IMG/VR virus record: IMGVR_UViG_2645727852_000004
Source: an uncultured virus (IMG/VR IMGVR_UViG_2645727852_000004)
Lineage: Duplodnaviria; Heunggongvirae; Uroviricota; Caudoviricetes
Direction: 5' to 3' (one strand)
Length of the DNA: 64,000 nt
Part shown: one piece after another, positions 1 to 33,672 of the stretch
Numbering within the stretch: position 1 is the first letter of the stretch
Layout of the letters: each line of letters starts with the position of its first letter
Notes under the pieces: generated by a model
Told to the model about the DNA's origin: nothing
Seen by the model: the letters and a program-made list of their open reading frames with translations, nothing else
The model's database searches: none
Program-made: the position numbers and the translations under genes

Positions 1-1083
1 TTACATATTAACCGAAGCAAATGGATGGCGCTCGATAGCTCTCTTCAAATGTTCGTCGAACAACTTCAAATATACAGCAGTAGAATTTATTGAATCATGG
101 CCCAGGAGTTTACTGAGTGTATAAATATCAATACCTTCTTCAAGAGCATACACAGCGAAGCAGTGGCGAAAAGTATGGGTGCTGTAGCGCTTTTTCTGGT
201 CTTCTGGAATGGATTTTGTCTGCTTAATGAGTTTGGTAATCATATGTTGAACGGTTCGTCTTTGAATGGCTGTTTGACCATTATCGTTGGAAAAAACGTA
301 TAGCTTACTAAATTCCGCTTCCGTTAATTCTTCTTTGAGACAAGCATACTTAAAGTAGATATACTCTAAGAGGATGAATAGTGCATGTTGATTGATCATT
401 CGCTCTCTTTTGGTGCTTTTTCCCTTAGCTATAACCTTTATGGTTTGGCGTACGGGTTCTATATCTCCGATTTGCAGATTACATAGCTCATTGAGCCGAA
501 TTCCAGAACCAAGAAAAGTCCAAATGATAACATGATCTCTCTGACCAGTTCGCTGCAATTGAGAACGCTTGATTAATTCTCCTAATTGTTCACGCGTAAA
601 TGCTCGTGGTAGATAATCTTCAGACCAAGTAATCTTCAAAATACCTTTTAAGTCAGTGATATCCATCATCCAGAAGTGACGAAAAGTAGTTTTGAAAAAT
701 GTTCGGAGAAATGCACTCTTTTTTGATCGAGTGTTTGAATTTTGGCATGCAGAAAGATATTCAACAAGCAGCGAAGGTTCAGCTGTCTGTTCTAGCATAG
801 AGTCTTTCCCGAGCTTTGCAAAAATAAAGTTTTGAAACAAGCCGAGTTCATATAAATAAGTTTCTTGAGAAGTTTTGCTTAGACCAAGAAACTTTGAACA
901 TGTGATAAAAAATTCGCAGGCTTGCTCAAACGCTATCTCTTCTTTTTGAGATTCCAGAGTAGGAGATGAGAGACCAGCTTCTTTCAAGGCTTTTTCAAGA
1001 AGCTCTGGTCCATATGTTGCTATGATAGATTGAATATCAGCGTGTAATGATTGAAGTGGAGACTGACTTTTGGTAATAGGCAT
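1..1083 (-). CDS. Tyrosine recombinase (XerC/D-like)
   Basis: Catalytic motifs GIRLNEL, KGK, HTFRH, LGHDSINSTAVY; start overlaps the stop of the upstream recombinase at 1083. Confidence 0.9.
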   Translation of the reverse strand: MPITKSQSPLQSLHADIQSIIATYGPELLEKALKEAGLSSPTLESQKEEIAFEQACEFFITCSKFLGLSKTSQETYLYELGLFQNFIFAKLGKDSMLEQTAEPSLLVEYLSACQNSNTRSKKSAFLRTFFKTTFRHFWMMDITDLKGILKITWSEDYLPRAFTREQLGELIKRSQLQRTGQRDHVIIWTFLGSGIRLNELCNLQIGDIEPVRQTIKVIAKGKSTKRERMINQHALFILLEYIYFKYACLKEELTEAEFSKLYVFSNDNGQTAIQRRTVQHMITKLIKQTKSIPEDQKKRYSTHTFRHCFAVYALEEGIDIYTLSKLLGHDSINSTAVYLKLFDEHLKRAIERHPFASVNM

Positions 1084-2588
1084 TATTTTTCCTCCCTGGT
1101 TTTAAAATATAATTGGTTGATGGCCATTCGAAGAACTTTTTCTTCTCTGTGAATATACAAACTGGTGCTTTCAGGACGTTCGTGGCGAGCTAAATACATA
1201 ATGACCTGTGGGGTATATTGATTCTGCTCTGATAGTCGGGTGATAAAAGTATGACGAAACAGATACAGACCTCCAGGATATTCATTCCAGCTTGCTATAA
1301 GCTTAAACAGTGTATAAAAATCAAGAAGTTTATTTTTGAAGTTTTTTGGATTCGAATGGAAAACGAACCCCTTTTGATCTGTAGGAGTTAACTCTTTAAA
1401 TTGTGCTGTGAGAACCGCAGGAAGAGGTAGAAGAGTAGCTTTCCCTTTTCCTAAAACAGAAATTTTTTGAGTTTCTAAGTTTATGTCTTTCCACTTCAGC
1501 TCACTCATTTCTTGAGGTCGAAAGCCTAAAAATAGCATCAGGGAGAATGCAAGCCTATACAATTTTGGATTTGGTGAGTATATATCGGATATTTCTAGCA
1601 AATGACTGATTTCCATGTCAGATGGAATTTTACGATATACATACTTGTCAAATTCAATGCCATTTACTTGCTCGGCAATGTCGTGAATTGTGAGCTTCAT
1701 TTGATGCATTCGCGCAAAAAGTGCACGTACGGTATAAAATACATCACTTGCATAGCGCTGAGAGATTTCTTCTCTTTGAACTTTCCGAATAAGATGATGT
1801 CGAAATTCTACTAAATGCTCGGAAGTAATTTTAAATAGAGGTAGAAAATTTAAGTTATAGTCACTGAATTCTGTAAAAGTGTTTTTTAACCATATCAAGA
1901 ACTTTGTATAATGACGATTGTTTTTGAGCATAGTAGACTCGGTAATACCATATTTCTTTGCTGACTTATTGCATGCTGTGATCGTCGGGTGATCTATTAC
2001 AAAGTTTTTGGTAGAATGGGAGCAATGTATAAAATCAGACAGCTCTAACTTTGGAAAAAATAAGGTGAACATTTTGCTGAGCAGTTTAAACTTTTTTGGA
2101 GTAATATGGGTCTGTTTAGCAAAGGAAATGAATGTTTCTTTTTGAGTTAACATTTCCTTTTGAATTTGCTGAATACTAACATGAGACATAAGTGCGACAT
2201 ACTGTAAAAACTTTATGATAAACTTATAGTTATCATAAAACCCAAAAGGATGCTTGTTCTTTTGTGAAGCCAAGAAGGCATAGAGTTCTTTGACAGTTAT
2301 TTTTTCTTTTGCAAGATTGTCAAGAATCCATTCGTTGATGGCTTGTGGTCCTTTATATTCTTGTATATTACTGCTGTTTATGTTGAACAAAGTACTCACA
2401 TGTTTCACCAAACTTTCCAGAGTAACTGTTTTAATGTCAAAAGTGTAACCAGTTTGAGGCGGTGCTATACAATTTGCGGAAAAATATGTCACAGAAGAAG
2501 CATTCTGTGTAATTTTTTTCCTGTTTTCTGTCGAGCTGTTTCCGTCAACTGTATTAAGCTTTTGGATAGAAGAGGAACGTTTTTTCAT
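1083..2588 (-). CDS. Tyrosine recombinase with long N-terminal extension
   Basis: GFRPQEM, GKG, YLFRH, LARHERPESTSLY; degenerate HxxR/LGH motifs. Confidence 0.8.
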   Translation of the reverse strand: MKKRSSSIQKLNTVDGNSSTENRKKITQNASSVTYFSANCIAPPQTGYTFDIKTVTLESLVKHVSTLFNINSSNIQEYKGPQAINEWILDNLAKEKITVKELYAFLASQKNKHPFGFYDNYKFIIKFLQYVALMSHVSIQQIQKEMLTQKETFISFAKQTHITPKKFKLLSKMFTLFFPKLELSDFIHCSHSTKNFVIDHPTITACNKSAKKYGITESTMLKNNRHYTKFLIWLKNTFTEFSDYNLNFLPLFKITSEHLVEFRHHLIRKVQREEISQRYASDVFYTVRALFARMHQMKLTIHDIAEQVNGIEFDKYVYRKIPSDMEISHLLEISDIYSPNPKLYRLAFSLMLFLGFRPQEMSELKWKDINLETQKISVLGKGKATLLPLPAVLTAQFKELTPTDQKGFVFHSNPKNFKNKLLDFYTLFKLIASWNEYPGGLYLFRHTFITRLSEQNQYTPQVIMYLARHERPESTSLYIHREEKVLRMAINQLYFKTREEK

Positions 2589-2646
2589 TGTCTTCTCCTT
2601 TTTAGTTCAGGATTTAATCCATATTGTTGAGTGAGTTAGGTCTATA

Positions 2647-2666
2647 TCTTCGTACTAGTACGAAGA
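2647..2666. repeat. Perfect 20-bp palindrome within a longer hairpin
   Basis: TCTTCGTACTAGTACGAAGA, with imperfect outer arms and a T-run downstream. Confidence 0.8.
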
Positions 2667-2845
2667 ATATAGGCCTTTTTTATGTATTCATTATTCTGTT
2701 CTTGTTTTGCTGTACATTATAAAAAATCCTATATGTTGTATTAATAAATAGCCATTTATAAGCATTTTTCAAGAAAAAAACAAGAAAACCCCTACATATA
2801 GGATTTTCAAGAAAAAAACAAATGAGTTTTTTAAAATTAAAATAG

Positions 2846-3715
2846 GTGATCTGTATGTTCGATATAACTGACTTACTTCAAAATGATGAAGATCCTGGAC
2901 AAGACATCATGATCAAACTGAGGTGGGCCAGAGAATGGGCCCTAAATAGAAATTTAAAGATAGAGGATTTTAATAAGAACCATGGGTGGAACTTAAATGA
3001 ATGGAGGGAGGCTAAGTATATCAGTCGGGATATTATTTTTAAAGACAGTTTGTTAATACGTATTCCGGCTTTATATAGAAGAAACTTCTTAGCATATGAT
3101 CATGGGTTTACGAAAAAAGAGTTAGCCAATGTAATAGACGAATCGGAAAATAAAATAGGAGATTTGCTCAATATAAAAAGAGAACGTACACCGAGGGATG
3201 GAACATTTGAGAAGATGGCCATTGCTTTAGATGTTCCGTTGCCGTATTTAAAAATTGATAATTATGATAGACTTGAAAACGATGAATTCATAGAATATGA
3301 GCATGTAGCTGAAAGAAAAAAACTTGAGCAGTTGAGTTCTATCTTTCATGATAAGTTGGAAGGAAGGAATGTTAGGGGATTTGTTATAATTAACGAATCA
3401 AACTACATGATTAATGAAGAAAGGCTATATGCTCGTTTCGAAACAAATGATGTATATTACAGGTTGGAATTTTTTGTGAGGAGAAATTGTGGTATTCATG
3501 ATGCCATGAATCTTCGGAAGCAATTTAAGCAGAGAGTAGATTACATGATTTTTACTCCCGCAACATTGCGTAAAAATTACTTAAAGTTAATTTTTACAGG
3601 CTCTTACACGAAGGATGCGAAAAAGTTCCAAAAATATATTGATGAGATGAAGAAAAGAAAGTATACACGGGTAGTGGATACAACGGGAGAATATATAAGA
3701 GCATTTAATCAATAA
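2846..3715 (+). CDS. XRE-family HTH protein
   Basis: Central GFTKKELANVI...FEKMAIALDVPLPYL HTH; divergent from the recombinase pair. Confidence 0.65.
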   Translation: MICMFDITDLLQNDEDPGQDIMIKLRWAREWALNRNLKIEDFNKNHGWNLNEWREAKYISRDIIFKDSLLIRIPALYRRNFLAYDHGFTKKELANVIDESENKIGDLLNIKRERTPRDGTFEKMAIALDVPLPYLKIDNYDRLENDEFIEYEHVAERKKLEQLSSIFHDKLEGRNVRGFVIINESNYMINEERLYARFETNDVYYRLEFFVRRNCGIHDAMNLRKQFKQRVDYMIFTPATLRKNYLKLIFTGSYTKDAKKFQKYIDEMKKRKYTRVVDTTGEYIRAFNQ

Positions 3716-3861
3716 ATCCTACAACTTATGGGATTTCTGAAATAACATAATAACGATTGTAAACCCTCCTTATTAAATCTGGAGGGTTTATTTTTTTGTG
3801 TACCTTAGCTAATAGGACATAGTTTGCGGTGAATAAGTATGTATCAAAGGAGGGGAAGCAT

Positions 3862-4020
3862 ATGAAAAAAAATCATTCTTTTACATTTACATATGTTTTC
3901 CTTGAACCCGATAAACAGGTTGTTAGTGATAAGCCGGTAGCGCTTGATGCTAAGCAGGCTGTAATCGACTACATTATTAAAAAGATTATTCTGGAAGGTG
4001 AGTCTAAACGTTTGCGCTAG
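3862..4020 (+). CDS. Small protein upstream of serine recombinase 1 (candidate directionality factor)
   Basis: RBS AAAGGAGG then ATG 3862; 52 aa; function inferred from position only. Confidence 0.55.
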   Translation: MKKNHSFTFTYVFLEPDKQVVSDKPVALDAKQAVIDYIIKKIILEGESKRLR

Positions 4021-4042
4021 TTCAAACCTGTCAATAATTAAT

Positions 4043-4060
4043 CAAGAACAAATGTTCTTG
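4043..4060. promoter_or_regulatory. LexA/DinR (SOS) box
   Basis: CAAGAAC-AAAT-GTTCTTG matches GAAC-N4-GTTC, just upstream of the recombinase RBS. Confidence 0.7.
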
Positions 4061-4074
4061 TTATATATGGAGGG

Positions 4075-5721
4075 ATGAACATGTATACAGCGATTTATAT
4101 ACGTGTGTCAACAGGAATGCAGGCGACGGAAGGAACCGGTTTAGAAGGGCAGTATGAAGCGTGCCTGAAAAAAGCACAGGAATTCTTGGTGTCTGCATCA
4201 GCCATTAAGTTATATAAAGAAGATGGGTTTACCGGTGAAGATATTAGTCGGCCAGCGATGAATGAACTACGGAGCGATGTAAGTGCGGGTAGAATTGAGC
4301 GTGTCATTATCACTCACCCTGACCGGCTTACCCGTGATTTAACAGATAAGCTCATCTTGTGTCGGGAGTTTGAAAAAAGCAATGTTGAGCTTGTTTTTGT
4401 GGATACGGAATATCGAAACACGCCAGAAGGACAGTTGTTCTTTAATCTGATGAGTTCGATTGCGCAGTATGAATTATCATTAATTAAAAAACGTACTGTG
4501 CGTGGGCGACTGAAAGCTGTGGAGAAAGATAAGAAAATCATGCCAATGCGGGTAGCTCCATACGGTTTTAACATGGTGAACAATAAGCTTCTAGTTAACG
4601 AAGAAGAAGCGGAGTTTGTCAAAAAGGTATATCACTGGTATGTGTATGAAGGGCTGACGCTGCGGGAAATTGGAGAGAGACTGTTTACGCTTGGAGCTGA
4701 ACCGAAGCGGGCGGAAAGTAGGAACTGGGGTGCAAGCTCAATCCGAAGGATATTGACATCAGAAATATATATTGGAAAGTACTATTACAACCGACGTCAG
4801 ACTAGCAAGGTAAAGGGGGAGAAAACGAAGTCCGGATCTCCCCGGAAAACATACAGCTTCCGAGATAAAAGTGAATGGATTATGCTGGATGTTCCGCCAA
4901 TTATCGATGAGCAGCTTTTTGAATTGGCGCAGCGGCAGAGAGAAGTGAATACGAAGAAATCAGGAAATGTAAAATACGAGTATTTATTGAAATCGCTTAT
5001 TCGCTGCGGCCATTGCGGACGGATGTGGCAGTCGACTACGTATTCGGGTCGTGTGGATAAACAGACAGGTAAGCGAATGAAATATATGTGCTATCGATGT
5101 CCGAACCTTTTTCCGAAAAAGTATGGTGAGGGTGTGGAGAAGTGTTGTACAAAATCACTTCGAGCGGAAGAACTGGATCGGTATATATGGGGCCTTATTC
5201 TTGAAACGATTTCGAATCCGGATGACTATATTCAGCGTATAACTAGACAGTCAGGAGATATTCTGGAGAATTTGCTCAGTACGGCATCGCTTCTGCAAAA
5301 GCAGGTAGAGCAGAAGGAGAAGGAAAAAGAGAAGATCAAAACGATGTTTAAGCGAGAAGTCATTGACGAAAAAGAAATGGTGGATGAAATGCAGAAAATA
5401 AACACCGCTATGAGAACGATACAGGCTGAGTTGGAGAAGTATGAGGAGCAGGTGGTTCTTCATAAAGAGAAGGAAATGTCAGCTGACAGAATAAAGGAAA
5501 TTGCCCAGCTAATTAATCAATTTGTTGATAATGAGGGTAGAGATCTTACTTTTGATGAGAAACGTACAATTGTGGAAGCACTTGTAGATGAGATCATAAT
5601 TCGATTTAATGATAACAGTGTTGAGGTTACAGCAGTAGGGGCGCTGGATGAATTAAAGCGTCAACGACTGCTTCAGCATTGCCATGACGTCGGTTCGGGT
5701 TTATATCACCAAGAAATTTGA
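4075..5721 (+). CDS. Large serine recombinase 1 (sigK element 1)
   Basis: YIRVST, DRLTR, recombinase domain, LIRCGHCG zinc ribbon, coiled coil. Likely start ATG 4081. Stop lies inside the sigK fragment. Confidence 0.93.
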
Positions 5722-5850
5722 AAACACCGGAGAAGATAGCGAAGATCTCATATCCATCGGGACCATCGGTTTGATTAAAGCGATCGAGAGCTACAAGAAA
5801 AACAAAGGGACTAAGTTGGCTACATATGCCGCTCGGTGCATAGAAAATGA
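5703..5850 (+). CDS. sigK: Internal fragment A of split sigK (sigma region 2)
   Basis: [49 protein letters not shown]; homology stops after ENE. Confidence 0.93.
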
Positions 5851-5887
5851 GACTCTAATGTCAACAGTAGTGCATAGAAAGGTGTGG

Positions 5888-5973
5888 TTATCCACAGTCT
5901 TTTTTATTATACACATATTAAATAATTAATTATTGTGAATAGTGTGAATAAAATGTTAATAACTTGTGTATAA
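5888..5973. promoter_or_regulatory. DnaA-box cluster
   Basis: Four TTATNCACA matches (5888, 5907, 5943 rev, 5965 rev) plus two one-mismatch boxes (5934, 5954). Confidence 0.7.
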
Positions 5974-6674
5974 GTGCAGAGCATATCTTAGTGTGGGATA
6001 AATTCTTTATGTGCGTTTAAACAAAAATAATTAATTTACTCCAATTTATATGTTTACACATCCTGAAATCTTTTCTAAAATAAAAATGTTAATATATAGA
6101 AAATAAGGGAGTGGATTGTATTATATTAACATCCTTAAATATCTCTGCTTTAGTTATTTTCGCCATGAGATTTTTTGAGATTGACACAGAACTGAAGTTT
6201 AATAGAATCGTACTATATAAATTATACTTGATATTTTGATATAGTAGTATGATTGGAAGTAGGCGATTCAAAAAAAAGAGGTTGGATGCGCCCTGCGCTC
6301 CAGCAGAAGAAAGGAAAACGTGTCTTTTTCCGCCCGCCCACCGCCCTTCCTTCTGTTCTTACCTCTCACCACAAGAGTTTGTCGATTTATCAAATCAGAT
6401 ATATATATATTTCAGTAGTTTTTACTATTGCTCTAGTAAATAAAAGCAAAAAGGTGTAAAACATTATGAAAATGAAGCTGTAGAGTAACCATCTATTCTT
6501 TTAAGCACTTCTTTATATAAGTGAAGGCTTCTAGCTAAAAATAAAACGAAGCTAGGGAATAGTAGACACTTTACAGTACATAAATGATAATTTTAATCTT
6601 TTTGTAACCTTATTTACTAAAAAGCAGTTTATGATAGAAAATGAATCAATTTCTATAGAGAGAAGGAAGTAAGG

Positions 6675-7625
6675 TTGCAAAAATCAAGATTACAGGAAGC
6701 AAGGTTGCGGAAAGCCAGAAGGAAAAGCATTTTAATTTGGTCTGCCATTGTATGTTTAGGGATTATTATTTTAGTTAATCTCATCTTTCATCCATTGGAT
6801 AAATATTTAGCACACGCTAATGAACCTGATATTACTGTAGGAAAAGAAAAGCCAGCGCAGGAAAAAGAAAAGCAGACACAACAACCGGCTAATTCTTTAC
6901 AAGGTGACACAAATAAACAACAGCAGCAAATTCAGCAACAAACACAGGAGGGAACAACACAGATCCAAGAGCAAGTATCCCAGGAAGGCCCTCATCCGTT
7001 ACCTCTTGGGAAGCTCATTAATAACATTCCAACAAAGGATAACAAGACTATTTATTTAACTTTTGATGATGGACCTAATGAACATACAGCGGAAATCGTT
7101 TCTATTCTTGAAAAAAATAAGATTAACGCTTCTTTCTTTTGGATCGGTGATAAAGTAACAGATAAAATGGGTGAATTTGGCCATCAGATGATAGAAAAAG
7201 GAAATGTGATTGGTTCACATACTATGCATCATGATGCACTTGGTAAAGAAAGCGGAGCTAAGCAAAAAAATGATTTAAAACAAGCAGCTAGCCTGATTGG
7301 AGATAAAGTTGGACATAAGGTTACTTATATGCGTCCGCCTTACGGATCGGTAAATGCGGAAACTAGAAAGATTACGAAAGAACTTGGTCAGTATATTATG
7401 TTTTGGGAAGTAGATAGCCTGGATTGGAGTCTAGCTCATAAACCAGAACAAATTCTAACAAACATTAAAAATGGAAAAGTAAAGCCAGGTTCGATTATTC
7501 TAATGCACGAGCGTAAGCAGACGGTTGAAATGCTTCCAAAGGTTATTGAGTATTTACGAAGCCAAGGCTATAATTTTGCAGCATTACCTGCTTCTCCTGT
7601 ACCAGAAGAAGCAAAAACGAAATAG
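6675..7625 (+). CDS. Membrane-anchored polysaccharide/peptidoglycan deacetylase (NodB/CE4)
   Basis: TFDDGP, HTMHH, RPPYG, DSLDW, LMHE; N-terminal TM helix and Gln-rich linker. Confidence 0.92.
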   Translation: MQKSRLQEARLRKARRKSILIWSAIVCLGIIILVNLIFHPLDKYLAHANEPDITVGKEKPAQEKEKQTQQPANSLQGDTNKQQQQIQQQTQEGTTQIQEQVSQEGPHPLPLGKLINNIPTKDNKTIYLTFDDGPNEHTAEIVSILEKNKINASFFWIGDKVTDKMGEFGHQMIEKGNVIGSHTMHHDALGKESGAKQKNDLKQAASLIGDKVGHKVTYMRPPYGSVNAETRKITKELGQYIMFWEVDSLDWSLAHKPEQILTNIKNGKVKPGSIILMHERKQTVEMLPKVIEYLRSQGYNFAALPASPVPEEAKTK

Positions 7626-7805
7626 TATTTTTAGATGAGTGGCTATTAAATGTTTTAACTTACGAGAGTTTATACAAAGAAAATAGATCAATTTCTGAAG
7701 TCGTCTACTATAGACGGCTTTTTTCTTTTACTGGAAATTGCTGTTTTTATAAACACTCCTAAAGAGAGTTATAATGGAATATAGATAAAATGAGGAGTGT
7801 AGGTT

Positions 7806-8006
7806 ATGAAAAATATTTATATAGTTGCTTTTATTTTAATTGTAATTGTTGCTTTTATTTTATTCTTTCGTTTCTGGAAATCAAGAAAAAAACAAGATGT
7901 AAAACTCCAAAAAGAACTAAAGAAAAATGCAGAACGTATTCGTCACCGACAAAAACAGGTGGATAAATTATCAGCCAAACTTCAGGAGAGGCTAGATAAA
8001 AAGTAA
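7806..8006 (+). CDS. Small single-TM basic protein
   Basis: RBS GAGGAG; hydrophobic N-terminus and Lys-rich tail. Confidence 0.6.
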   Translation: MKNIYIVAFILIVIVAFILFFRFWKSRKKQDVKLQKELKKNAERIRHRQKQVDKLSAKLQERLDKK

Positions 8007-8241
8007 TCATTCTCTGTATGGCTCTGTTAGCAAAGGAACGCTGCAAACCACTATGTTTGTTGAGGATGACATATACGATCATACGTTTAGAGGAAAGTGA
8101 TAATGACACAGCCCTGCTGTCCGTATGGATAACAGGGCTGTGTACTATGTATAATATTTAGCTTTTTGAAGCTGGATTAATTATATACACATGTAAACAA
8201 GCGGCATCTGCATAGCCTTCATTAATAGGAGGGGTACGCAG

Positions 8242-8409
8242 ATGCATAGTAAGATTATCAAGGGAAGTTTTGCTGATAAAAATTTGCTTGCCTGCTATAT
8301 GTATCTCAAAGAGAAGTATAGGAGGGAAAAGCTGCGTGATCGGAATCTATGCACGAGTGAGCACAGAGGAACAAGCGAAGAGCGGCTTCAGCCTGAAAGA
8401 TCAGATTAG
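8242..8409 (+). CDS. 55-aa ORF overlapping the recombinase 2 start (candidate directionality factor)
   Basis: RBS AGGAGGGG, ATG 8242, MHSKIIKGSFADKNLLACYMYLKEKYRREKL...; not in the ORF track. Confidence 0.5.
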   Translation: MHSKIIKGSFADKNLLACYMYLKEKYRREKLRDRNLCTSEHRGTSEERLQPERSD

Positions 8410-9844
8410 GGAGTGTCAGAAGAAGGCTGGAACAGATAACTATAAGCAATATATAGATCAAGGAATTTCTGGCGAATTCTTAGACCGGCCGGCATTATCA
8501 CAGCTTCGTCAGGATGTTCGGGACGGATTGATTACGAAGGTGGTTTGCTTAGACCCTGACCGTTTATCACGTAAGCTTATGCATCAGCTTCTTATTACCG
8601 AAGAGTTCGATCAAAAAGGTATTCAGTTGATTTTCGTAAATGGTGAGTATGCCCGAACGCCAGAAGGTCAGCTATTTTACAGTATGCGTGGTGCGATTGC
8701 GGAGTTTGAAAAAGCGAAAATCAATGAACGGATGAGCCGTGGTCGGCGGGAGAAAGCACGGCAGGGAAGAGTACTTCGTGATTTTCAAGTGTATGGTTAC
8801 AACTACGATAAAGAGAACGAGCAGATGGTTATTAATGAAGAGGAGGCTGCGATCGTTCGTCTCATATTTGATTTGTTTACGAAACCATGGAAGGTACAGG
8901 GGATGAACGGGATTGCTCTTTACCTTACAAAAGAAGGAATCCCTACAAAAAGAGGAAAAGGCGTATGGCACCGTCAGGTAGTACGTCAAATTCTGATGAA
9001 TGAAGCCTACATAGGCGAGTTTTATCAGAATCGATGGAACACAGAAGGGATGTTAGGGAATAAACATAAAAGCAAAGAAGAACACGTTCCGATGAAAGAA
9101 CGTCCAAGGGAGGAATGGATTCTTATTCCTTGTCCTTCTATCATTGAGCAGGAACAATTTGAATATGCTCAGAAGTTACTACAGGACTCCCGAAGAAGGT
9201 GGGCTAAAACAGGATTGCATGAGTATCTTTTGAGTGGATTGCTGCGTTGTGCTAATTGTGGAAATACGATGACCGGCCGTCGTGCAAAAAATTGGGGAAA
9301 GTATGTATATGAATATACAGATAGAAAAAATACAGCTGGTACTCAGCATAAAGGCTGTGGAAGAACGATAAAAGCTGAAAACTTGGATAATGAAGTGTGG
9401 GAAGCAATCAGGAGTTGGCTAAAGCACCCGAATGAAGTAGCGGCAGCAACCGAGATAGATAAGGAACAACAGGAGAAATTTTCCGTCGAACTAATAGAGA
9501 TTGGGCGTTTGCAGAAGGAAATCGAAAAAGTAAAAATAGGCCGGAAAAGACTTTTTACGTTATTTGTTGATGGAATGGATATAAAAGAAAAAGAGATACG
9601 TGAACAAATACATTTTTTGAAGGAGAAAGAAGAAAAAGCGACGAAGAAATTAGAAAAATTGAAAGCAAGGGTTAGGGAAGCGAAGGAAGCGCAGTTTAAT
9701 CAGCACCTGTTGAGCGAGGCAGCAGAATATTATTTGACCAGGCAGCATGATAAATTAACATTAGAGGATAGGAAGCAGTTAATTCGTCAGTTAGTGCGTG
9801 AGATTATCGTGTATGAGGAACGAATAGAGATATTTACGTACTAA
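8336..9844 (+). CDS. spoIVCA: Large serine recombinase 2, SpoIVCA-like
   Basis: GTG 8336 after [38 protein letters not shown] and [13 protein letters not shown] closely resemble B. subtilis SpoIVCA as I recall it; ends ~24 bp before the att site. Confidence 0.88.
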
Positions 9845-9867
9845 GCAATACGATTGACTTTAGAATC

Positions 9868-9957
9868 GAGATTTTAATGCATTTGCGTTCATTAAAGAAA
9901 ACGAAAAAGGACGTTTCGCTGCATGATCCGATTGGAACAGATAAGGAAGGAAATGAA
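9868..9957 (+). CDS. sigK: Internal fragment B of split sigK
   Basis: [30 protein letters not shown], hand-translated and absent from the ORF track; homology is lost after GNE. Confidence 0.93.
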
Positions 9958-10008
9958 TTTAGGCTAACAGGATGTACGTTGTGGATAACTAAGAAGAGGA
10001 GAGGCGAA

Positions 10009-11556
10009 TCACTCCGGCAGGTAAATCTCAATTTCTAAATCGAAGTTATCGCCACGTTGATGTTTTTCTTTTCTATATGTTACTTTTTCGATGACCTGTT
10101 TCAGTAGGTCATTTTTCTTTTCCGGATCTTCTGTTTGATGATACGCTTCGATTACATGTTTAATACGCGGTAATAAGCTTTCCTTGGCAGTTTCCTGTTC
10201 GCGTACACGGCTAGCTTCTTCAGCTACCCTTTTAATTGCTTCTTTCGTTTCACTTATACGGCCCATGATGTTCTGATTACGTTCTAAGTAGGTGTCTATA
10301 TCATAGACGCCACGTTCCAGCAAATCATGCAACTTATTTTTTTGTTTTTCCAATTCGTCTAGCTGCTTCTCCATGTCGCTTATGATAGTCTCTGGTGTAA
10401 AAGAGGTTGACTCTGCCTCTGTTTCGGCAGCTACTTCCCTTTCTATTTCCTCCATATTTACTTCGAAATCATTCAACCATTGTTGTAATTGATTTAGTAC
10501 AGCACGTTCTACATATTCAAAGCGGGTGCTTTTGTTCTTGCAGTTCACATTGCTGCAGCGAATGTGTGGAGCCTGCTTTGTGTACGGACGTTTAATCATA
10601 GCAGCACTACATAAGTCACAGCGAACTAGGCCAGCTAATGGATTAGTAATTTTCAAGTTGGCCCGATTAGGTACTCGTGTTTTCTGTTTCAGTGTTTGTT
10701 GAGCCTTCTTGAAAAGTTCAGTAGAAACAAGTGAATCATGTTTGCCTTCTACATCAATCCATTCATCACGAGGGCGCCACTCCTCGATCCCTTTCTTCTT
10801 ATTGGTGTACTTCTTGCGCCATTGCATACGACCAATATAAACCTCATTCCTCAAAATTGATATGACAGAATAGGGGGACCACAATCCTTTACCTGAAGGA
10901 GTAGATATTTTCATTTCATTGAGCCGGCGGGAAATACGTGATGTACCAACTTTTTCATTTACATACCAATGAAAGATAAGACGAACAATTTCAGCTTCTT
11001 TCTCATTTGGCACAAGAATAAGATCGTCGCCTTTACTGTAGCCAAACGGAGCTTTCGTACCAATAAAACGCCCTTCCTTTACAGAAGCAACACGGCCGCG
11101 CTGAAGACGTTTGTTGATTAGCTTTAGCTCACGACGCGCCATGAATGCCTCAAATTCAGAGTATTCCTCGTCAAATTCATCTTCGAGGTCATAGCTTTTT
11201 TGAGGTGTGATAATCAGTGTTTTTGACTCTTTGAATGCAGCAATAATAGCACCCTGGTCGCGCATATCACCACGGCCTAATCGGTCAATATCCATACAGA
11301 GAACAGCATCATACATACCGTCTTCGACTTCATTCAATAGCCTGATTACTTCAGGGCGATCAGCAATGCGCTCACCAGATACGATTTCTTCATAGATTTT
11401 TATAATGTTGTATTCGTTCCGGTGTGCCAGCTCCAGCAGAGCTTTCTTATGTTTAGATAATGTTTCACCTTCGCCACGCATTTCTGCTTCGATATCAGCG
11501 CGGGATTTACGTAGATACATGACGACTCGATTCAGACCTTTTGGAAATTCACGCAT
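10009..11556 (-). CDS. Large serine recombinase 3 (prophage integrase)
   Basis: YLRKSR, DIDRLGR, LVRCDLC; 3' end ~50 bp from the sigK junction. Confidence 0.93.
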
Positions 11557-11690
11557 GGTTTACCTCCTGTATACTGATATGATTTTATGCTGAATAGATA
11601 AGGATAATTTGTATTGCTATAAAAAACCACAAAAGTGGCAATTGAGAATAACGTGGATATTTTGAGAACAAATTATACATAATGGAATAG

Positions 11691-11702
11691 GAATGTATGT
11701 TC
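11691..11702. promoter_or_regulatory. LexA-like box upstream of the integrase
   Basis: GAATGTATGTTC, one mismatch to GAAC-N4-GTTC. Confidence 0.5.
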
Positions 11703-12160
11703 TGTTTTATAATTAAAAAGAAGAGCCTGAGAAAGGCTTCAGAATTCAGATATTAATAATAGTACATAGAGGAGAGTTATTCACAACCCTCTCTTTATTT
11801 TAGCGTATCATTGTTCATTATCGTTATGAATAGTCGAAGGAAGGTTTGTTCTTGGTTGCAAGTGAAAAGAAAAGCGGAAAGGATAATTTTACCTACCCCC
11901 ATTAATAATCAAATGCATACCATTTGACAAATGATAAAAGAACACTGTTTATGGGCTCTTTTAAATTATATAGCATATATATTTTATTTTAAGGCAATAA
12001 AGCTAAAGCTACATATAATAAAAAAGAACGCGGCTTAAGCAGAAATTTTTCTGGAACTATATACGAGAAGAAGCAAACAAAAGTTCTTTTTTTAGGCTAT
12101 AAGTGTTATAATTTAACATGATAATCGATTAGATGAATAACAAATATATCCAAGTGGGAG

Positions 12161-13168
12161 GTGATTCAAATGGCAAAAGGGGCACATTTGAAAAAGCTTT
12201 TTCAGAGTTATAGGGATGGTAATGATGAGTTATTTAAGGATGTTGCTCAGTTAATTATTGAAGATGAACAGAAGAAAAATCATTTGCAATTAGCAGAGGA
12301 ACTGCAGCGAATCATTAATTCAACTGTAACTCGTCGAAAAGCTGAAACAAATTTCCAGCAGAATTATTTTCATCTTTTGCCTAAAGATAAAGATTCCAAC
12401 TACCCATTAATGGATATAAAACAATCAAAAAAGGTTTTAGCTGATTTGATCTTGGCTGAAGAAATGAAAAATTTGATTATTGAATTCATCCAGGAGTTTG
12501 AACAGGCTGATATTTTAGCATCTTACGGGTTAACAGCAAGAAATAGATTTTTGTTTTGTGGACCACCAGGATGTGGAAAAACAGTTACAGCTGAAGCAAT
12601 AGCAGGAGAACTAAGTCTGCCTCTTTTATATATTCGATTTGACAGTGTGGTCTCTTCTTATCTTGGTGAGACGGCCTCGAATTTACGTAAGGTTTTTGAT
12701 TTTGCTACTAAAGGAACATGGGTTTTATTTTTTGATGAGTTCGATGCTATTGCTAAAAGTCGAGATAATTCAGATGAGCATGGGGAACTGAAAAGGGTAG
12801 TCAATAGCTTTCTGCAGCTGCTGGATAATTATCATGGAAATAGTATTGTGATTGCAGCTACAAATCATCAACAATTATTAGATTCAGCTATTTGGAGAAG
12901 GTTTGATGATGTACTCTTTTTTGAAAAGCCTAATGTTACTGAAATTAAAGGGCTTTTAACAAAACATCTAAAAAGATTTCCGTATGAAGCTATTGATGTA
13001 AATAAATTGGCTGTTAGTATGAATGGATTTTCACATGCTGATATTGAGCGTGTGTGTCTAACAACAATCAAACGGGCAATCATTCATGGTGAAAAGATGA
13101 TTACACATGATGATTTAAAACATCAGATAGAGCTATATCAAAAAAGAAATCGAGTATACAATAATTGA
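12161..13168 (+). CDS. AAA+ ATPase (IetA-like)
   Basis: Walker A GPPGCGKT, Walker B FFDEFD, AATNH, AIWRRFD; adjacent to an S8 peptidase. Confidence 0.9.
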   Translation: MIQMAKGAHLKKLFQSYRDGNDELFKDVAQLIIEDEQKKNHLQLAEELQRIINSTVTRRKAETNFQQNYFHLLPKDKDSNYPLMDIKQSKKVLADLILAEEMKNLIIEFIQEFEQADILASYGLTARNRFLFCGPPGCGKTVTAEAIAGELSLPLLYIRFDSVVSSYLGETASNLRKVFDFATKGTWVLFFDEFDAIAKSRDNSDEHGELKRVVNSFLQLLDNYHGNSIVIAATNHQQLLDSAIWRRFDDVLFFEKPNVTEIKGLLTKHLKRFPYEAIDVNKLAVSMNGFSHADIERVCLTTIKRAIIHGEKMITHDDLKHQIELYQKRNRVYNN

Positions 13169-13169
13169 T

Positions 13170-13195
13170 AAAAGGACGAGTGACCTCGTCCTTTT
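13170..13195. terminator. Bidirectional terminator
   Basis: AAAAGGACGAG-tgac-CTCGTCCTTTT between convergent genes. Confidence 0.8.
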
Positions 13196-15585
13196 TATTT
13201 TAATCTTCCTCGTGTTCTTTGAGGAATTCTTTGGTTTATTCTGTTAGAAACTGAGTCGTATAACTTTGCCTCAACATTTTCATGTTCGAGTGATACTACA
13301 ATTGCATAGTTTTGCTTTTCATTACCTTCATACCACCTCTTCGCACATTTAACCACAAGATAATAAGTATCTCCATAGTCCTCTCGGGACCTCTTGGAGG
13401 CTGCTATAGTATGTGTTGCCTTTAGGAGAGTTCCACGCTGTACCTCTGTCATAGAAGGAGACAAATTACATTTGCACCTTTTCTTCTCAGTAGGAAGTGA
13501 GTCTTTTTCAAATTCATCATCATCTGGTTTGCAGGTGTACCTTTTAATTTCATCTAGAGAGAGACCCCGATACAGGGTAAACGACATTTTAGTACCTACA
13601 TAATCAATTCGGCTATCACGGCAAGGGGGATTATACGCCAGTGAAATATGAATTTTTGTCTTTCCTTTTTTATTATATACTTCATCCGGAATAGGGATTT
13701 CAAATACACTTACCTTATCAACTTCAATTTGTCCTTCATGATACATAGTTACATAGTGATCATAAGAGTTAGTAAGAATCTGCTCTCTAACTTCTCCATA
13801 ACCAGATAGCCTAGTTTGATAAGTTTTTAATTCTGATGGTTTTGAAATAGTATTAGAAAATTTTTCTGCTACTGCTTTTATAGCTTGTGTTTCAATAGTA
13901 GCTGTATTAATAAGTAATGCTCGGAGTAAATTTCCTTTTGCAGTAGGAATCTCACGTTTAATTCTTCCTAATAAATGGGCAATATACGGTGCAGCAAAAC
14001 TCGTACCTGAACGAACTTCAAACCATGAATCATTGCCATCAAATATACTAGTAGAAAATATACCGAGATTCCTATCGGAAAAATTTATTTGCTTTACTTG
14101 TGTATTCAGGGAGAAATTTCCCCCGTATGAAATTGTTTCTGGTTTAATTGAATTAGCATATCCGTATCCCGAGCGACTAAAAGGAGATATATGTTCCTTT
14201 TTAGCAATAGCACGATATTGAAGCTTTCTTCTAGAGTATGGTGAAATATAAGGGACTTCTTCCTTAGCCTTAGAGCCCACTGTTAGACCACTTATAGCAA
14301 TCGCAGGAGGAATTACGGATGCTTCAGGATCATGTAGAAGATATTCCATATACTTTTCTAAAACCTCTTCTCCTCCTTCAGGAAAATAGTTTCCACTAGA
14401 AATGACGACCGCAATATTGTACTTATGATTTAGGGAGTCGATAATATAACTCCAAGGATCCATTTTTGTTTGTTGTTGATATGGAATCCGTGTATCGCCA
14501 AGAGAAATGTTAAATATTTTACAATTATAGTTATCACTGGCGAAGTATTCTATAGCTTCTTTTACAACTGAAGCGAGTATTTTTTCGTCTGAGAATTCAT
14601 TGTTTTCATTAGTGACACGACCATTAAGTAAGCGAAATTGAGGCATAAGCGGACTGGGCTGTTGAAGGGTTGCGTAGACGTCTCCATACTGAGTAATACC
14701 AGCTACCATTGTTCCATGTCCGTTTTTATCAGCAGGGTCATCTAAACCGCCAAATGCTGCAGAATCATAAACAGTTCCTTTAAGAAGTGGGTGAGAAGAA
14801 AGTACACCGCTATCAATAATAGCGATAAAGGGCCCATCCTCAGGAGCAGGAATAACTTCTGGCAATTCATCGACTCCTATGTTTCTAACACTCTCGTAAT
14901 CATGAGTTGATTGTTGAGGAAGATCGATGGTATATACATTATGATGCTCTAAAAGAGCATGAATATTTTTTCCTAAAATCGAAATTCTAATTAAGGCCAA
15001 ATTTGATAATATACAATCATCTATAAATGATACCTCTAACTCTCTCAAGAAATCCCTAAAAAGGTTCACTTTATTATAGATTTCATGAAGTGAATCGTTC
15101 CCTGTATACAACTGCACATCAATAGTATATAATTCGTTTGTTTTTATATCTTCATGTTTAATAAGAGGTCCTTTTTTTTCTTCAGGAGTTAGAAAAACAA
15201 ATTCATTAAGATTAGCAAATTCTGAGTAGTTAAGAGCTCGCTTCTTAGCAATCTTATTAGCAGTAAAATCAGAGAGGTGAGAGTTAAAAGTTTGACTGTT
15301 TTTTACGCGAACAATTACCTTGGTATCAGAAGGCACAGCTAATAATTCAAGTCCTAACTTTGAATATTTAATATGCTTACTGTTATCTTTTACAATGCAA
15401 AAAATAAAATCTTCACCAATTTTTTTTGCTTTTTTAAATTCGCTTTCTCTTTCTTGAAATCCTTTTTTTAACATTGCTCCATGAGCAGGAGGATAAACAA
15501 TTCTATCACCTCGACTGTCTGGTTTTCCTTGACGAGTAAGATTAATATTCTCCTGAACAAGTGGTAGGTGTTGATACGGGTTCAT
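13195..15585 (-). CDS. Cytoplasmic S8 serine peptidase (IetS-like)
   Basis: IIDSG, HGTMVAG, SSGN, SGTSFAAP; no signal peptide. Confidence 0.9.
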   Translation of the reverse strand: MNPYQHLPLVQENINLTRQGKPDSRGDRIVYPPAHGAMLKKGFQERESEFKKAKKIGEDFIFCIVKDNSKHIKYSKLGLELLAVPSDTKVIVRVKNSQTFNSHLSDFTANKIAKKRALNYSEFANLNEFVFLTPEEKKGPLIKHEDIKTNELYTIDVQLYTGNDSLHEIYNKVNLFRDFLRELEVSFIDDCILSNLALIRISILGKNIHALLEHHNVYTIDLPQQSTHDYESVRNIGVDELPEVIPAPEDGPFIAIIDSGVLSSHPLLKGTVYDSAAFGGLDDPADKNGHGTMVAGITQYGDVYATLQQPSPLMPQFRLLNGRVTNENNEFSDEKILASVVKEAIEYFASDNYNCKIFNISLGDTRIPYQQQTKMDPWSYIIDSLNHKYNIAVVISSGNYFPEGGEEVLEKYMEYLLHDPEASVIPPAIAISGLTVGSKAKEEVPYISPYSRRKLQYRAIAKKEHISPFSRSGYGYANSIKPETISYGGNFSLNTQVKQINFSDRNLGIFSTSIFDGNDSWFEVRSGTSFAAPYIAHLLGRIKREIPTAKGNLLRALLINTATIETQAIKAVAEKFSNTISKPSELKTYQTRLSGYGEVREQILTNSYDHYVTMYHEGQIEVDKVSVFEIPIPDEVYNKKGKTKIHISLAYNPPCRDSRIDYVGTKMSFTLYRGLSLDEIKRYTCKPDDDEFEKDSLPTEKKRCKCNLSPSMTEVQRGTLLKATHTIAASKRSREDYGDTYYLVVKCAKRWYEGNEKQNYAIVVSLEHENVEAKLYDSVSNRINQRIPQRTRGRLK

Positions 15586-15874
15586 TTTTTCACCCCTGAT
15601 ATAGTAGAAAATGTTTAGAAATAAGAAGAGTATATTGGGTATACGTTCCCTCTCTTAACGGGCTATTTGACTTATACATACTGTTATTAAAGTTGTGTTT
15701 GATATAGTATCTATGATACCACATTTTACCTAGTTGATGAATTACTCAAGCTTTACATCTCGTAAATGTACATTGTAATATAAGAAAGCACCGAAGATAT
15801 AGAATGGTAAATATTTTTAAAAAAAACTGAAAAGGATTTTTCGGATTAATGTACATTGCAATTAAAATTCTTAC

Positions 15875-16702
15875 TTAAAAATCATCATAAAAACTATCAA
15901 ACCCATTCGTTTTTGAACTTTTAATAAGCAAAAATCCAATAATTCCAAACAAAAACATAGCTAAAAGTTCATTAAATGAGATTAGTTTGCTTGGGTTAAG
16001 AAAGGCACTAATAATATTTATAATGATCATAAATGTATCTAGAAGGATCAGAAACACCCCCATAATACCGTAAAGGGTCCGATCAATTTTGCGTTCATGT
16101 TTAATCCAGAAATTAATAAACCTACTGAAAAGAGTATCTTTTGATACAGCCTTTCTTGCCCAAGCCGAAAGAAAAGAGCCATTTTTTATTTCACCACCAC
16201 CTTTTACTTTTCCCTCAACTTTAATATGAACTGATGAAGGTGCAGTATGAAACAGTTGTATAGTGGCTCCATCATTTTTATCAAGATAATCAAAATCAAT
16301 AAGAAGATGGGACTTATCTGGGGCTTCCCTGATTGTAAAATTATTGACGGGATCCTTTTCAAAAATTTTAGTGTGAACTAATATTTCAAAACCATCAGAT
16401 ATGTTTATTCTCAAGGGGGCTTTTTCGGTTATATCGCTTTTATCAATTGTTTGGTTACCTTTATTCCATATCATAATTTTAGTTACAGTCAGGTTAGAAA
16501 CTGGTTCACCTTTACATGTGATTTCAAGTTCCTCAATACCCTTTTGATAATCACGGATGATATTTTTGCCAGTTATCAAGTATCGTGGTTTTTTTTGAGG
16601 ACGTGCTTTGACTGTTAGAATCAAACTGATTATACCAGCTACTGCAGTAGCTAAAGCGAAATATGGATTGGCGACAACCCAAGCCAAAAACTGCTCAAGC
16701 AA
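15875..16702 (-). CDS. Hypothetical membrane protein
   Basis: One N-terminal and two C-terminal TM segments; AT-rich. Confidence 0.65.
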   Translation of the reverse strand: MLEQFLAWVVANPYFALATAVAGIISLILTVKARPQKKPRYLITGKNIIRDYQKGIEELEITCKGEPVSNLTVTKIMIWNKGNQTIDKSDITEKAPLRINISDGFEILVHTKIFEKDPVNNFTIREAPDKSHLLIDFDYLDKNDGATIQLFHTAPSSVHIKVEGKVKGGGEIKNGSFLSAWARKAVSKDTLFSRFINFWIKHERKIDRTLYGIMGVFLILLDTFMIIINIISAFLNPSKLISFNELLAMFLFGIIGFLLIKSSKTNGFDSFYDDF

Positions 16703-16964
16703 TGAAATTCTCTCCTTTTTTACAACAATGTCTATGTTTCATAACTATTTTTGCGAAGCAAATCACTGTGAGTTCTATATATAAATAGATTAAAATTCAA
16801 ATAAAATTTTCTCGTTTAATTCCAGAACTTTTTTTCGCCTTTTTTTCAAAAGTCACTGAGAAATCAATAATAGTAATCTTCTTTTCCGTATCTAACGTTT
16901 CAATAACTTCTCGCGCACCTTTGCTACCATAATATATCTAGAAGCGGTAGGGACAGGTTGAGTC

Positions 16965-17296
16965 TAATATTTTCTTTAATGATTTCGTACGGATAGCAGA
17001 ATCAATCCCAAATACAGCAATCAGCTGCCGAGCAGCAGCTATGCTCCACTAGGCGATATCAATCCGATCCGGTCGACCATGTTCTCTCTTGTTTGGTACA
17101 GGATGTTTTTTTTTCCATATCAGCAGAAGATAGGGGCTAGATCAAGTAACTTCTTCTGCAATGCAAAATGAAACTCTGTCTTATTCACATGTTTTTTCTT
17201 CTGGCTGTGGGTGGGTTCACGCACGACTTCCTCTACAAGATGCAATACGACTTCACGCAACTTCTCAGCATCAATGATAAGAGTGATTTGCTGCAT
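16965..17296 (-). pseudogene. Degraded ORF
   Basis: RBS GAGGTG then MQQITLIIDAEKLREVV...; broken by stops and frameshifts; later segment reads RIDIA*W...IAVFGIDS. Confidence 0.35.
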
Positions 17297-17419
17297 ATCC
17301 CATCACCTCAGAATTTTATAGTGAATAAAACTCTATAAAAGGACAGAACGACACCAATGACTATATCGTCCAGATGTCGTTTGTTGTTTATAATTTGTGT
17401 ATGATCTTTAACTGACCTT

Positions 17420-18097
17420 TTATTTCTTTGCCCAAAGTCCTTTTTCAGCATCTCGTGCCTGCTTTTGGAGCTTCACAAAGCTATCTGTATACTTCACATT
17501 CGGTGGGAACGTAGCGACCTGGGCATACCCTTCTTTCACAAGCGTCTGATTCAGCATTTCAGCTTTTGGATTCTTCGCATTACCTAACCATACGTAAGCC
17601 AGTAGACGGCCATATTTATCACGCTGTTGAACATCAAATTCAAGCGTAACTGTTTGACCATCTAAGCGTTTCTTTGTGTAAGCAGAGGCTTCTGGACCAT
17701 ATGGCTGTACCGGTTTGTTTGGATGAACTGTCTCTGGCGTATCGATACCAATCAAACGAATGCTTTCTTCCTTGCCATTGATCTTTGCTTTAAACGTATC
17801 TCCATCGACAACTTTCGTAACCGTAACTTTCAGGGTACCAGGAAGTTTGTTTTGAGCAGGCTTAGTTGTAGCCGGCTTTGTAGGAGCTGGTTGTGTTGCT
17901 TTGGTGGTAGGGGCAGACGTTGTTTTTGTACTTCCCCCATTATGATAGTGATATTCTCCGTCTTTTAATCCCCATTTAGCACAGTTTGTCCGACAAGTGT
18001 GACCTCCGTTTGCGTCAGTCCGACCAGGGTGAGCAGAAGCGGATAGTGGAGCTGCTACCAGTCCTAGCATGATCATGAGTGCAAGTATCTTTTTCAT
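17420..18097 (-). CDS. Secreted thermonuclease with N-terminal YHYH domain
   Basis: Signal peptide; HPGRTDANGGH...EYHYHN; VVDGDT, RLIGIDTPE, DKYGRLLAY. Confidence 0.9.
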   Translation of the reverse strand: MKKILALMIMLGLVAAPLSASAHPGRTDANGGHTCRTNCAKWGLKDGEYHYHNGGSTKTTSAPTTKATQPAPTKPATTKPAQNKLPGTLKVTVTKVVDGDTFKAKINGKEESIRLIGIDTPETVHPNKPVQPYGPEASAYTKKRLDGQTVTLEFDVQQRDKYGRLLAYVWLGNAKNPKAEMLNQTLVKEGYAQVATFPPNVKYTDSFVKLQKQARDAEKGLWAKK

Positions 18098-18651: not shown

Positions 18652-18731
18652 GAAAAAAAGCTACCAGGTGAGTAAAGCCAGGTAGCTTTTTCTGTGTTTA
18701 TCTTTTGCTGATACATATTGTAATTTACTTA

Positions 18732-21471: not shown

Positions 21472-21544
21472 AATGAATCTCCTCTTTTAATATATTTTCG
21501 ACTATTCTTCTAGAATTCCGTGATGAATATAGAAATGTTCTGTT

Positions 21545-23305: not shown

Positions 23306-23339
23306 CAGACTTTTAGTTTAATTATCCTGATTGTACCAT

Positions 23340-33669: not shown

Positions 33670-33672
33670 CAG

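Follow-up and report, generated by a model that had tools for sequence, protein, structure and literature searches.

A sigK gene in four pieces, split by three integrative elements that each carry a large serine recombinase at one edge

Introduction

The rearrangement of sigK by the skin element is the textbook case of a developmental DNA rearrangement, and it is drawn as one element and two halves of a gene. How many elements can a single gene of this kind hold, and could it still be put together again? The question is raised by a stretch of 64,000 nucleotides recorded as an uncultured virus of the Caudoviricetes (IMG/VR IMGVR_UViG_2645727852_000004), here called the window, in which two short fragments of sigK, the gene of sigma-K, a sigma factor used in sporulation, are found among genes for large serine recombinases (LSRs). 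Three occupied sites are present here within 714 nt of coding sequence. It is probable that this sigK is a four-exon-like gene, cut at three attachment (att) sites by three independent integrative elements, each of which would be excised by its own LSR.

Four pieces of one gene

The window corresponds to C27:978454-1042453 of the assembly of genome G000 (6.35 Mb, 28 contigs). The SigK equivalog model TIGR02846 (cut-off 298.65 bits) was scanned against this whole assembly. Four partial matches were found, colinear, on the plus strand and all on contig C27. A preliminary description, made from the letters of the window, had proposed at least four pieces, and the scan gives exactly four. The 5' and 3' pieces, which lie beyond the window, are on the same contig and the same strand as the inner two, and in order:

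C27:968634-968837 (model match), plus strand: sigK piece 1 (202 nt), TIGR02846 positions 2-70; 9.8 kb upstream of the window
C27:984155-984334 (model match), plus strand: sigK piece 2, TIGR02846 positions 63-122; window 5715-5852 (core-inclusive 5711-5852), 138 nt, KFENTGED...ARCIENE
C27:988321-988422 (model match), plus strand: sigK piece 3, TIGR02846 positions 112-145; window 9872-9957 (core-inclusive 9868-9957), 86 nt, ends KEGNE
C27:1056598-1056861 (model match), plus strand: sigK piece 4 (288 nt), TIGR02846 positions 140-227; 14 kb downstream of the window

The two inner pieces had first been placed at about 5703-5850 and 9868-9957 and were said to join in frame. They do, within the limits listed above, and the joined stretch ends in KEGNE.

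Could an intact sigK exist elsewhere, so that the pieces seen here are remnants without their ends? Both terminal pieces are present, and no intact sigK was found in the whole assembly, either with TIGR02846 or in a DNA search with the intact sigK of the congeneric genome G003. In the DNA search, each part of sigK occurs once in G000. The sole full-length sigK-like match (262 bits, under the cut-off) was rejected as SigE; it scores 413.5 bits against an NCBIfam cut-off of 339 and adjoins sigG.

When the pieces are aligned to the G003 gene, homology stops at three points, namely HIVK/KFENTG, ENE/ILM and GNE/ISLID, which is the number of breaks proposed earlier. All three inserts sit inside the coding frame. 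When the four pieces are joined by coordinate at their shared cores, a frame of 714 nt is obtained, which encodes 237 aa and has no internal stop. The joined SigK is 95.8% identical to that of G003, with no gap, and 93.2% identical to that of G005; G003 SigK itself scores 374.8 bits against TIGR02846. Relative to G003, the joined gene has a pN/pS of 0.044. In piece 2, 27 of the 28 synonymous sites differ while no amino acid does, and the product of piece 3 is likewise free of differences.

Attachment sites and inserts

The cores were placed by aligning the pieces to the intact G003 gene and by comparing the left and right junctions. A short identical core is present at both junctions of every insert, and the removal of the insert restores the reading frame. 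The sites, all deduced from the junction comparison, are:

Site 1, plus strand, core AAGA: attL at C27:968823-968826; attR at C27:984164-984167 (window 5711-5714)
Site 2, plus strand, core GAGA: attL at C27:984302-984305 (window 5849-5852); attR at C27:988321-988324 (window 9868-9871)
Site 3, plus strand, core AATGAA: attL at C27:988405-988410 (window 9952-9957); attR at C27:1056598-1056603

The elements thus bounded, to which no strand is assigned, are:

C27:968823-984164, no strand: element A, 15,341 bp core to core; begins 9.6 kb upstream of the window, its right-hand 5.7 kb being window 1..5710
Window 5853..9867, no strand: element B, 4,019 bp core to core; no phage genes by Pfam
Window 9958..64000, no strand: left-hand 54 kb of element C, which measures 68,193 bp core to core and continues for 14 kb beyond the window

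In the attP inferred for each site, the core is the centre of an imperfect inverted repeat, which reads CAACACGTACATCCTGTT ... AACAGGATGTACGTTGTGG at site 3. An inverted repeat around the core is the typical look of LSR sites. At site 2, the symmetry would be centred on the first GA of GAGA, and the joined gene would then read ENEILMH, like the intact relatives. An att half-site of an LSR takes about 25 bp, and the cores are 138 and 86 nt apart. In every species compared, sigK breaks at identical nucleotides.

Three recombinases

The 3' end of a different LSR had been described at each break, and LSR A, LSR B and LSR C are indeed found there. Their genes are:

Window 4075-5721, plus strand: LSR A, 548 aa; the last four codons and the stop run across the site-1 core into sigK piece 2
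Window 8339-9844, plus strand: LSR B, 501 aa from a conserved GTG start; stops 24 nt before the site-2 core (attR2)
Window 10009-11556, minus strand: LSR C, 515 aa, convergent with piece 3; stops about 50 nt after the site-3 core (attL3)

All three have the Pfam domains Resolvase, Recombinase and Zn_ribbon_recom (PF00239 + PF07508 + PF13408). Large serine recombinases are about 450-600 aa long and depend for catalysis on the serine of an N-terminal motif, and the translations read YIRVS, YARVS and YLRKS here. Each matches the NCBIfam XisF model, well under its cut-off. Pairwise, they are only 25-30% identical to one another. The longest open reading frame (ORF) of LSR B begins at a TTG at 8270; the GTG start was chosen from the alignment of relatives.

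On the excised circle, the frame of LSR A would continue into the left end of element A, and a longer C-terminus would result. The orthologue of LSR A in G004 overlaps its sigK piece in the same way.

The three proteins differ in their phage kin. LSR C is 40.6% identical to the integrase of phage PhiS63 and about 42% identical to integrases of C. tetani prophages, and LSR B is 55% identical to the integrase of phage MMB025. No close phage relative of LSR A was found, the best being 29.6% identical. Names on the closest homologues of LSR B point to the genus Aneurinibacillus; among its best 120 homologues (at least 57% identity), no protein is named SpoIVCA.

Split sigK genes in related genomes

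Is this architecture a peculiarity of one genome? Seven species genomes of the genus (G000-G006) were compared, and at least two elements are present in sigK in five of the seven. The occupied sites, including those in more distant genomes, are:

G000: sites 1, 2 and 3; sigK in four pieces
G001, G002, G006: sites 2 and 3; sigK in three pieces
G004: sites 1 and 2; sigK in three pieces
G003: sigK intact
G005: sigK intact, displaced extra fragments nearby
G008 (wider family): sites 1 and 2
G010 (wider family): site 2
G011 (other family of the order): site 3
G007 (the window's own family): site 3, recombinase broken
G027 (different family of the class): site 2

In G380 and G317, which belong to another family, sigK is again in four pieces, with A-, B- and C-type recombinases in the matching gaps. 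Among the relatives compared, the recombinase beside a given sigK site is always from the clade of that site. At site 1, the A-type LSRs of G004, G008, G380 and G317 are 56%, 49%, 54% and 52% identical to LSR A, respectively. At site 2, B-type LSRs are found in seven relatives (53-87% identity to LSR B) and in G380 and G317 (59-60%). At site 3, the C-type LSR of G001 is 77% identical to LSR C, and those of G002, G006, G011, G380 and G317 are 47-49% identical.

The search was widened with the 30-aa piece-3 product as the query, which was run against 401 genomes of the class; 150 of the 324 matches were listed. The peptide has a match in 261 of the 401 genomes. Among the matches listed, at least 16 are open frames under 100 aa, and in at least 13 genomes such a frame is the only copy, which implies that sites 2 and 3 are both occupied there. 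Eighteen genomes picked for this feature were rescanned with the SigK model, which gave the four-piece genes of G380 and G317; owing to that choice, the rescan carries no information on frequency.

In G317 (G317:C1:346000-378000), the last sigK piece (model 138-227) lies on the opposite strand, adjoining the C-type recombinase. Either an inversion would be required to restore this sigK, or it is no longer functional, or the contig was misassembled. The site-2 insert of this genome also holds a partial second copy of a B-type recombinase.

In G005 (C1:1240000-1270000), three displaced 5' fragments of sigK precede the intact gene and one displaced 3' fragment follows it. At least two of the 5' fragments end at the site-1 core, after which comes a left end that resembles element A. 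The layout suggests that tandem elements bring a partial sigK copy of their own, so that insertion would leave the gene unbroken. Four genomes of genus g24 in family f17 (G032, G090, G257 and G266; 6.4-6.9 Mb) have an intact sigK, and within about 90 kb the piece-3 peptide recurs in 4-8 copies, which sit in open frames 93-205 aa long. These arrays look like displaced sigK fragments that successive insertions might have left behind.

Other strains of the species

Sequencing runs that share the locus were compared through their words from the stretch of piece 2, element B and piece 3. At least half of these words are contained in 14 runs, five of which are possibly the source of the DNA. The share is 0.97-0.98 in those five and 0.73-0.89 in the nine further runs, which come from six studies; in four runs recorded as RNA it is at most 0.22. 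Contigs of two isolates (X6 and X10) and two metagenomes (X7 and X12) were then aligned to a 20-kb locus, L044, which begins with piece 1 and reaches as far as the start of element C.

In these strains, site 1 is empty. Contigs of X10, X7 and X12 join position 263 of the locus to position 15605 and omit 15,341 bp, with 4 letters fitting both sides. The X6 contig has the same join with one extra letter, so that 15,341-15,342 bp are skipped in all four runs. Element A is therefore a discrete, recent and strain-specific insertion, and its boundaries are the ones that had been deduced from the sequence. Element B is covered by contigs in all four runs. The X6 and X10 contigs continue into the left end of element C, and those of X7 and X12 diverge after 19851, the last base of the site-3 core, where about 490 unlike letters follow. 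That elements B and C are discrete mobile elements as well is indicated by the intact sigK of G003 and G005 together with the differing occupancy of the sites among species.

The same contigs bear on the suspicion that the split gene is an artefact of assembly, produced by mis-joins at repeats or by mixed strains. The assembly does consist of 28 contigs with an estimated contamination of 4.4%, and a high-copy repeat lies inside element B. Yet all four pieces are on one contig of 4.9 Mb, the words of the piece 2 to piece 3 stretch are widely shared, independent runs have contigs that link attR1, piece 2, element B and piece 3, and the same architecture is seen in other species. An artefact is thus hardly credible. 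The contig joints 19851->16109, 1->16230 and 16142->16301, which fall in the high-copy repeat of element B, were discounted as products of that repeat.

A candidate directionality factor in element B

What would bring about the removal of an element? Excision by an LSR requires a directionality factor (PMC12286644). For element B, a candidate is found directly before its recombinase:

Window 8189..8218, plus strand: promoter-like block, ACATGTA, 15 nt, then CATAGCCT; upstream of the small ORF
Window 8242..8409, plus strand: small ORF, 55 aa; its 3' end overlaps the start of LSR B by 71 nt in another frame

About 97 nt separate the start of the small ORF from the conserved GTG/ATG start of LSR B. 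The small ORF is open and conserved in all seven related site-2 elements, where it encodes 64-67 aa and overlaps LSR B by 98-107 nt, and the same small ORF stands before the integrase of the infectious phage MMB025. [quoted passage not shown] Because this published layout is matched by element B (55-67 aa for the small ORF, 98-107 nt of overlap in the relatives and 501 aa for LSR B), the small ORF is a candidate recombination directionality factor.

The promoter-like block aligns in all eight site-2 elements as kCATnnn, 14-15 nt and CATA[CG]C[CT]T. It resembles what we take to be the sigma-E consensus, and also a CATA[CG] box of the -10 type that is conserved upstream of sigK itself in these genomes. 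The block before the LSR B unit may be regarded as a hint, and no more, that excision is confined to the sporulating mother cell.

Comparison with known systems

Each of the three sites is known singly in other bacteria. What is new is the presence of three recombination units together, the micro-pieces of 138 and 86 nt, and the recurrence of the arrangement across genera. In the Galperin survey preprint, the 15 genomes with a split sigK all have it in two fragments. A literature search gave no description of a sigK split by more than one element; the main survey, by Abe et al. (2013), lies outside that search and could alter this outcome.

As in the prophage-like skin element of B. subtilis, the sigK insert is flanked by an LSR encoded at its edge; there, removal in the mother cell joins the gene parts in frame. 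Skin is one element between two gene parts, whereas three elements separate four parts here. Further, spoIVCA is convergent with the 5' part of sigK (PMC10745906), whereas LSR B is co-directional with the 3' part and adjoins it. The core of skin is AATGA (PMC10745906), and skin lies in a different region of sigK from the site at nt 427 (PMC3442830). The AATGA of skin also occurs at site 2, within AATGAGA, where it overlaps the GAGA core. The core, a region other than that of nt 427 and the Skr-like ORF together make site 2 with LSR B the likely counterpart of skin with SpoIVCA.

Phage MMB025 likewise uses sigK for integration; its 4-nt core, TCTC, which is GAGA on the integrase strand, comes shortly after the integrase stop (PMC13141910). 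It resembles element B in this core, in its 55% identical integrase and in the small overlapping ORF, and is likely to occupy the same position in sigK; the attP of the phage, unlike the rest, does not align with the inferred attP of element B beyond GAGA.

In the B. cereus group, insertions at or near both of the other positions are known. B. cereus biovar anthracis has a non-phage island with a restriction-modification system (island IV) at sigK nt 195, and prophages of B. cereus AH820, J7 and J62 lie at nt 423 with an AATGA core; their excision in sporulation was seen by PCR and Southern blot (PMC10745906). By published description, the island is near the position of site 1 and the prophages are at that of site 3. 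Each of these strains has a single insertion, whereas there are three here. The recombinase of island IV lies beside the 5' part and points in the opposite direction; LSR A, in contrast, is beside the 3' part and in the same direction. Phage PhiS63, which integrates at sigK nt 427 with the core GTAATGAAAT (PMC3442830), shares with element C both the position of site 3 and the kinship of the integrase with LSR C. PhiS63 and MMB025 are single insertions in other genera (Clostridium and Alicyclobacillus), unlike the three insertions of the present gene.

Two further systems offer parallels outside sigK. The gin element, which interrupts gerE in B. cereus ATCC 10987, is a non-phage restriction-modification element excised by a serine recombinase with the small factor GirX (PMC5595907). 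Element A resembles it as a non-phage element that intervenes in a gene and carries a restriction-modification system. Gin is one element with three recombinase genes at one gerE site, whereas here three elements occupy three sites with one LSR each. In heterocystous cyanobacteria, the nif elements (Anabaena xisA and xisF; Calothrix NIES-4101) likewise sit in genes of a terminal cell, several at a time and each with its own recombinase, and all must leave; in NIES-4101, nifH1, nifD and nifB each carry multiple insertions (PMC11249958). They differ in phylum, cell type and genes, and some of the nif events are inversions or proceed via tyrosine recombinases.

Proposed reconstitution of sigK

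How, then, might the gene be restored? In the vegetative cell and the forespore, sigK would be dead, and it would remain so in the germ line. In the mother cell, each LSR, presumably with its cognate directionality factor, would recombine its own attL with its own attR. Each reaction would release a circle and leave the short core in sigK, and three such reactions, in any order, would give the 714-nt gene encoding pro-sigma-K. As the LSRs are so dissimilar and the half-sites do not overlap, the reactions can be independent and their order should be immaterial. All three excisions would take place within the mother cell in the course of sporulation, because single elements at matching or nearby sites excise, and because a sigma-E-like promoter and a Skr-like ORF stand before LSR B.

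Several points weigh against this reading. The joined form of site 1 is the main allele of the other strains and not an excision product, and the 24 runs are assembled contigs, which drop rare variants, so that direct evidence of excision in this strain is absent from them. Compared with those of the relatives, the small ORF of element B lacks 9-12 residues here. For elements A and C, no directionality-factor candidate was found: tblastn against the relatives showed no conserved small ORF upstream of either LSR A or LSR C, and alignments of the same upstream regions gave no clear shared or convincing sporulation promoter. Element A, strain-specific and absent from the four other runs compared, has had little time under selection; if LSR A were not expressed in the mother cell, the strain would be asporogenous. 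Element C, with an IS630-like insertion and a split DnaB-like gene, may be decaying or defective.

From several of these points, it could be argued that this strain has lost sigK function. Elements B and C would be tolerated, as they are in the relatives, but the newly arrived element A, or the decay of one unit, would block reconstitution; no mature spores would be formed, and the four-piece state would be an evolutionary dead end. The absence of element A elsewhere, its want of a sporulation-type promoter or directionality factor and the truncated small ORF of element B would all fit. Against this stand the four pieces, six att sites and three LSR genes, all of them intact, including LSR C and both att sites of element C. 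A-type elements at the same sigK site in G004, G008, G380 and G317, two of which also have a four-piece gene, argue that the A family is adapted to sigK, and the non-phage island at nt 195 in B. cereus biovar anthracis does excise in sporulation (PMC10745906). A dead gene is therefore considered unlikely.

Still less likely is a scheme of differing triggers, in which, for instance, element C leaves mainly on SOS induction and element A on transfer, and a full sigK exists just in rare cells free of all three or in cured lineages. Element C does have a complete-looking set of lysogeny and lytic genes; strains lacking element A exist and two metagenomes diverge at the site-3 core, which shows that elements come and go. 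Under such a scheme, spore formation would be very inefficient, and yet two or more elements are kept in sigK by most species of the genus. Moreover, in SPbeta and skin, a single recombinase serves both exit routes, with a sporulation-specific directionality factor (PMC4191935, PMC6957869).

Excision of all three elements in the mother cell thus remains the preferred account; does it amount to a designed device? The preliminary description had spoken of an AND gate. By sequence logic, three separate precise excisions would be required for sigma-K, and this part of the claim stands; for a purposeful gate, nothing beyond the structural logic speaks. One could imagine a coordinated developmental device, in which three orthogonal recombinase/att pairs share 230 bp of sigK and are all under the control of sigma factors of the mother cell. 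The slowest reaction would set the timing and the all-or-none onset of sigma-K, lineages would keep the elements for a useful delay or noise filter, and G317 would add a developmental inversion. This is improbable. Most likely, the pile-up of elements reflects sigK as a safe harbour for independent parasites and not a designed logic gate: the gene is highly conserved in sequence, and only a terminal cell requires it.

Within one genus, a multiply split sigK is common, and the state is seen again in another family. It is to be asked how efficiently, and in how strict an order, multiple excisions must proceed if a cell is to form spores, whether the elements compete or cooperate, and why the most conserved stretch of one sigma factor has attracted three unrelated recombinase lineages. 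The locus may also provide a natural set of three mutually orthogonal LSRs with mapped attL/attR pairs, of the kind sought for genome engineering, and for LSR B the candidate directionality factor lies within the same 4-kb unit. For annotation, it follows that sigK can be missed entirely in spore-formers, as the pieces are too small to be called.

Gene content of the elements

Element A is a 15.3-kb island without phage structural genes (Pfam, PADLOC), with LSR A at its right edge. Its cargo includes a C5 cytosine methylase and a type II restriction enzyme (PADLOC PDLC03504, 1110 bits), along with an NgoFVII-C-like protein, an EndoIII-like nicking enzyme, an MCP-domain protein and a DUF4238 protein. 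A tandem row of three tyrosine recombinases, all with PF00589, is also present; the third is directly upstream of the window (L025 19036-19953), and the two within it are:

Window 1-1083, minus strand: tyrosine recombinase
Window 1083-2588, minus strand: tyrosine recombinase

The three presumably resemble a recombinase-in-trio element, nested within element A.

Element B, a mini-element that amounts to a minimal recombination unit plus a single cargo gene, contains that gene, for a polysaccharide deacetylase, a small membrane ORF, a copy of a dispersed repeat, the small ORF described above and LSR B. The first and third of these are:

Window 6675..7625, plus strand: polysaccharide deacetylase gene, PF01522; PdaB/PdaA-like yet under the NCBIfam cut-offs
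Window 6212..6412, no strand: copy of the dispersed repeat of about 200 bp, with 339 blastn matches in the assembly

Blastn coverage is about 260-285 across window 6200-6420, and contig depth there is in the thousands. Across the assembly, the repeat has about 280-340 copies at about 86-89% identity and looks like a miniature inverted-repeat transposable element (MITE) or a repetitive extragenic palindrome (REP).

Element C, which has LSR C at its left edge, is a myovirus-like prophage. Its modules for lysogeny, recombination, replication, packaging, head, contractile tail and lysis all have Pfam matches. The matches are repressor/Cro/antirepressor, YqaJ/RecT and DnaB/DnaC-like proteins, along with terminase, portal, scaffold, capsid, sheath, tube, tape measure, baseplate, holin and a GH25 lysin. 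The DnaB-like helicase is split into an N-terminal domain at 31624-32253 and a C-terminal domain at 32563-33030, and the inserted pair of IS630-type transposase genes is at window 39596-40650. An Rfam scan of window 1-16000 gave no match.

Four more LSR-like genes are found in G000, at C24:262071-263342, C25:287749-289278, C27:796599-798008 and C27:1130546-1131310; of these, the C25 gene product shares 37% identity with LSR C.

A defence pair of the IetA/IetS type, an ATPase and a subtilase, lies beside LSR C:

Window 12161-13168, plus strand: IetA-like gene (PADLOC, 351 bits)
Window 13195-15585, minus strand: IetS-like gene (PADLOC, 415 bits)

The NCBIfam IteA/IteS matches of the pair are under the cut-offs. 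Two secreted-nuclease-like genes and a Kelch-repeat protein follow the pair, between LSR C and the prophage repressor.

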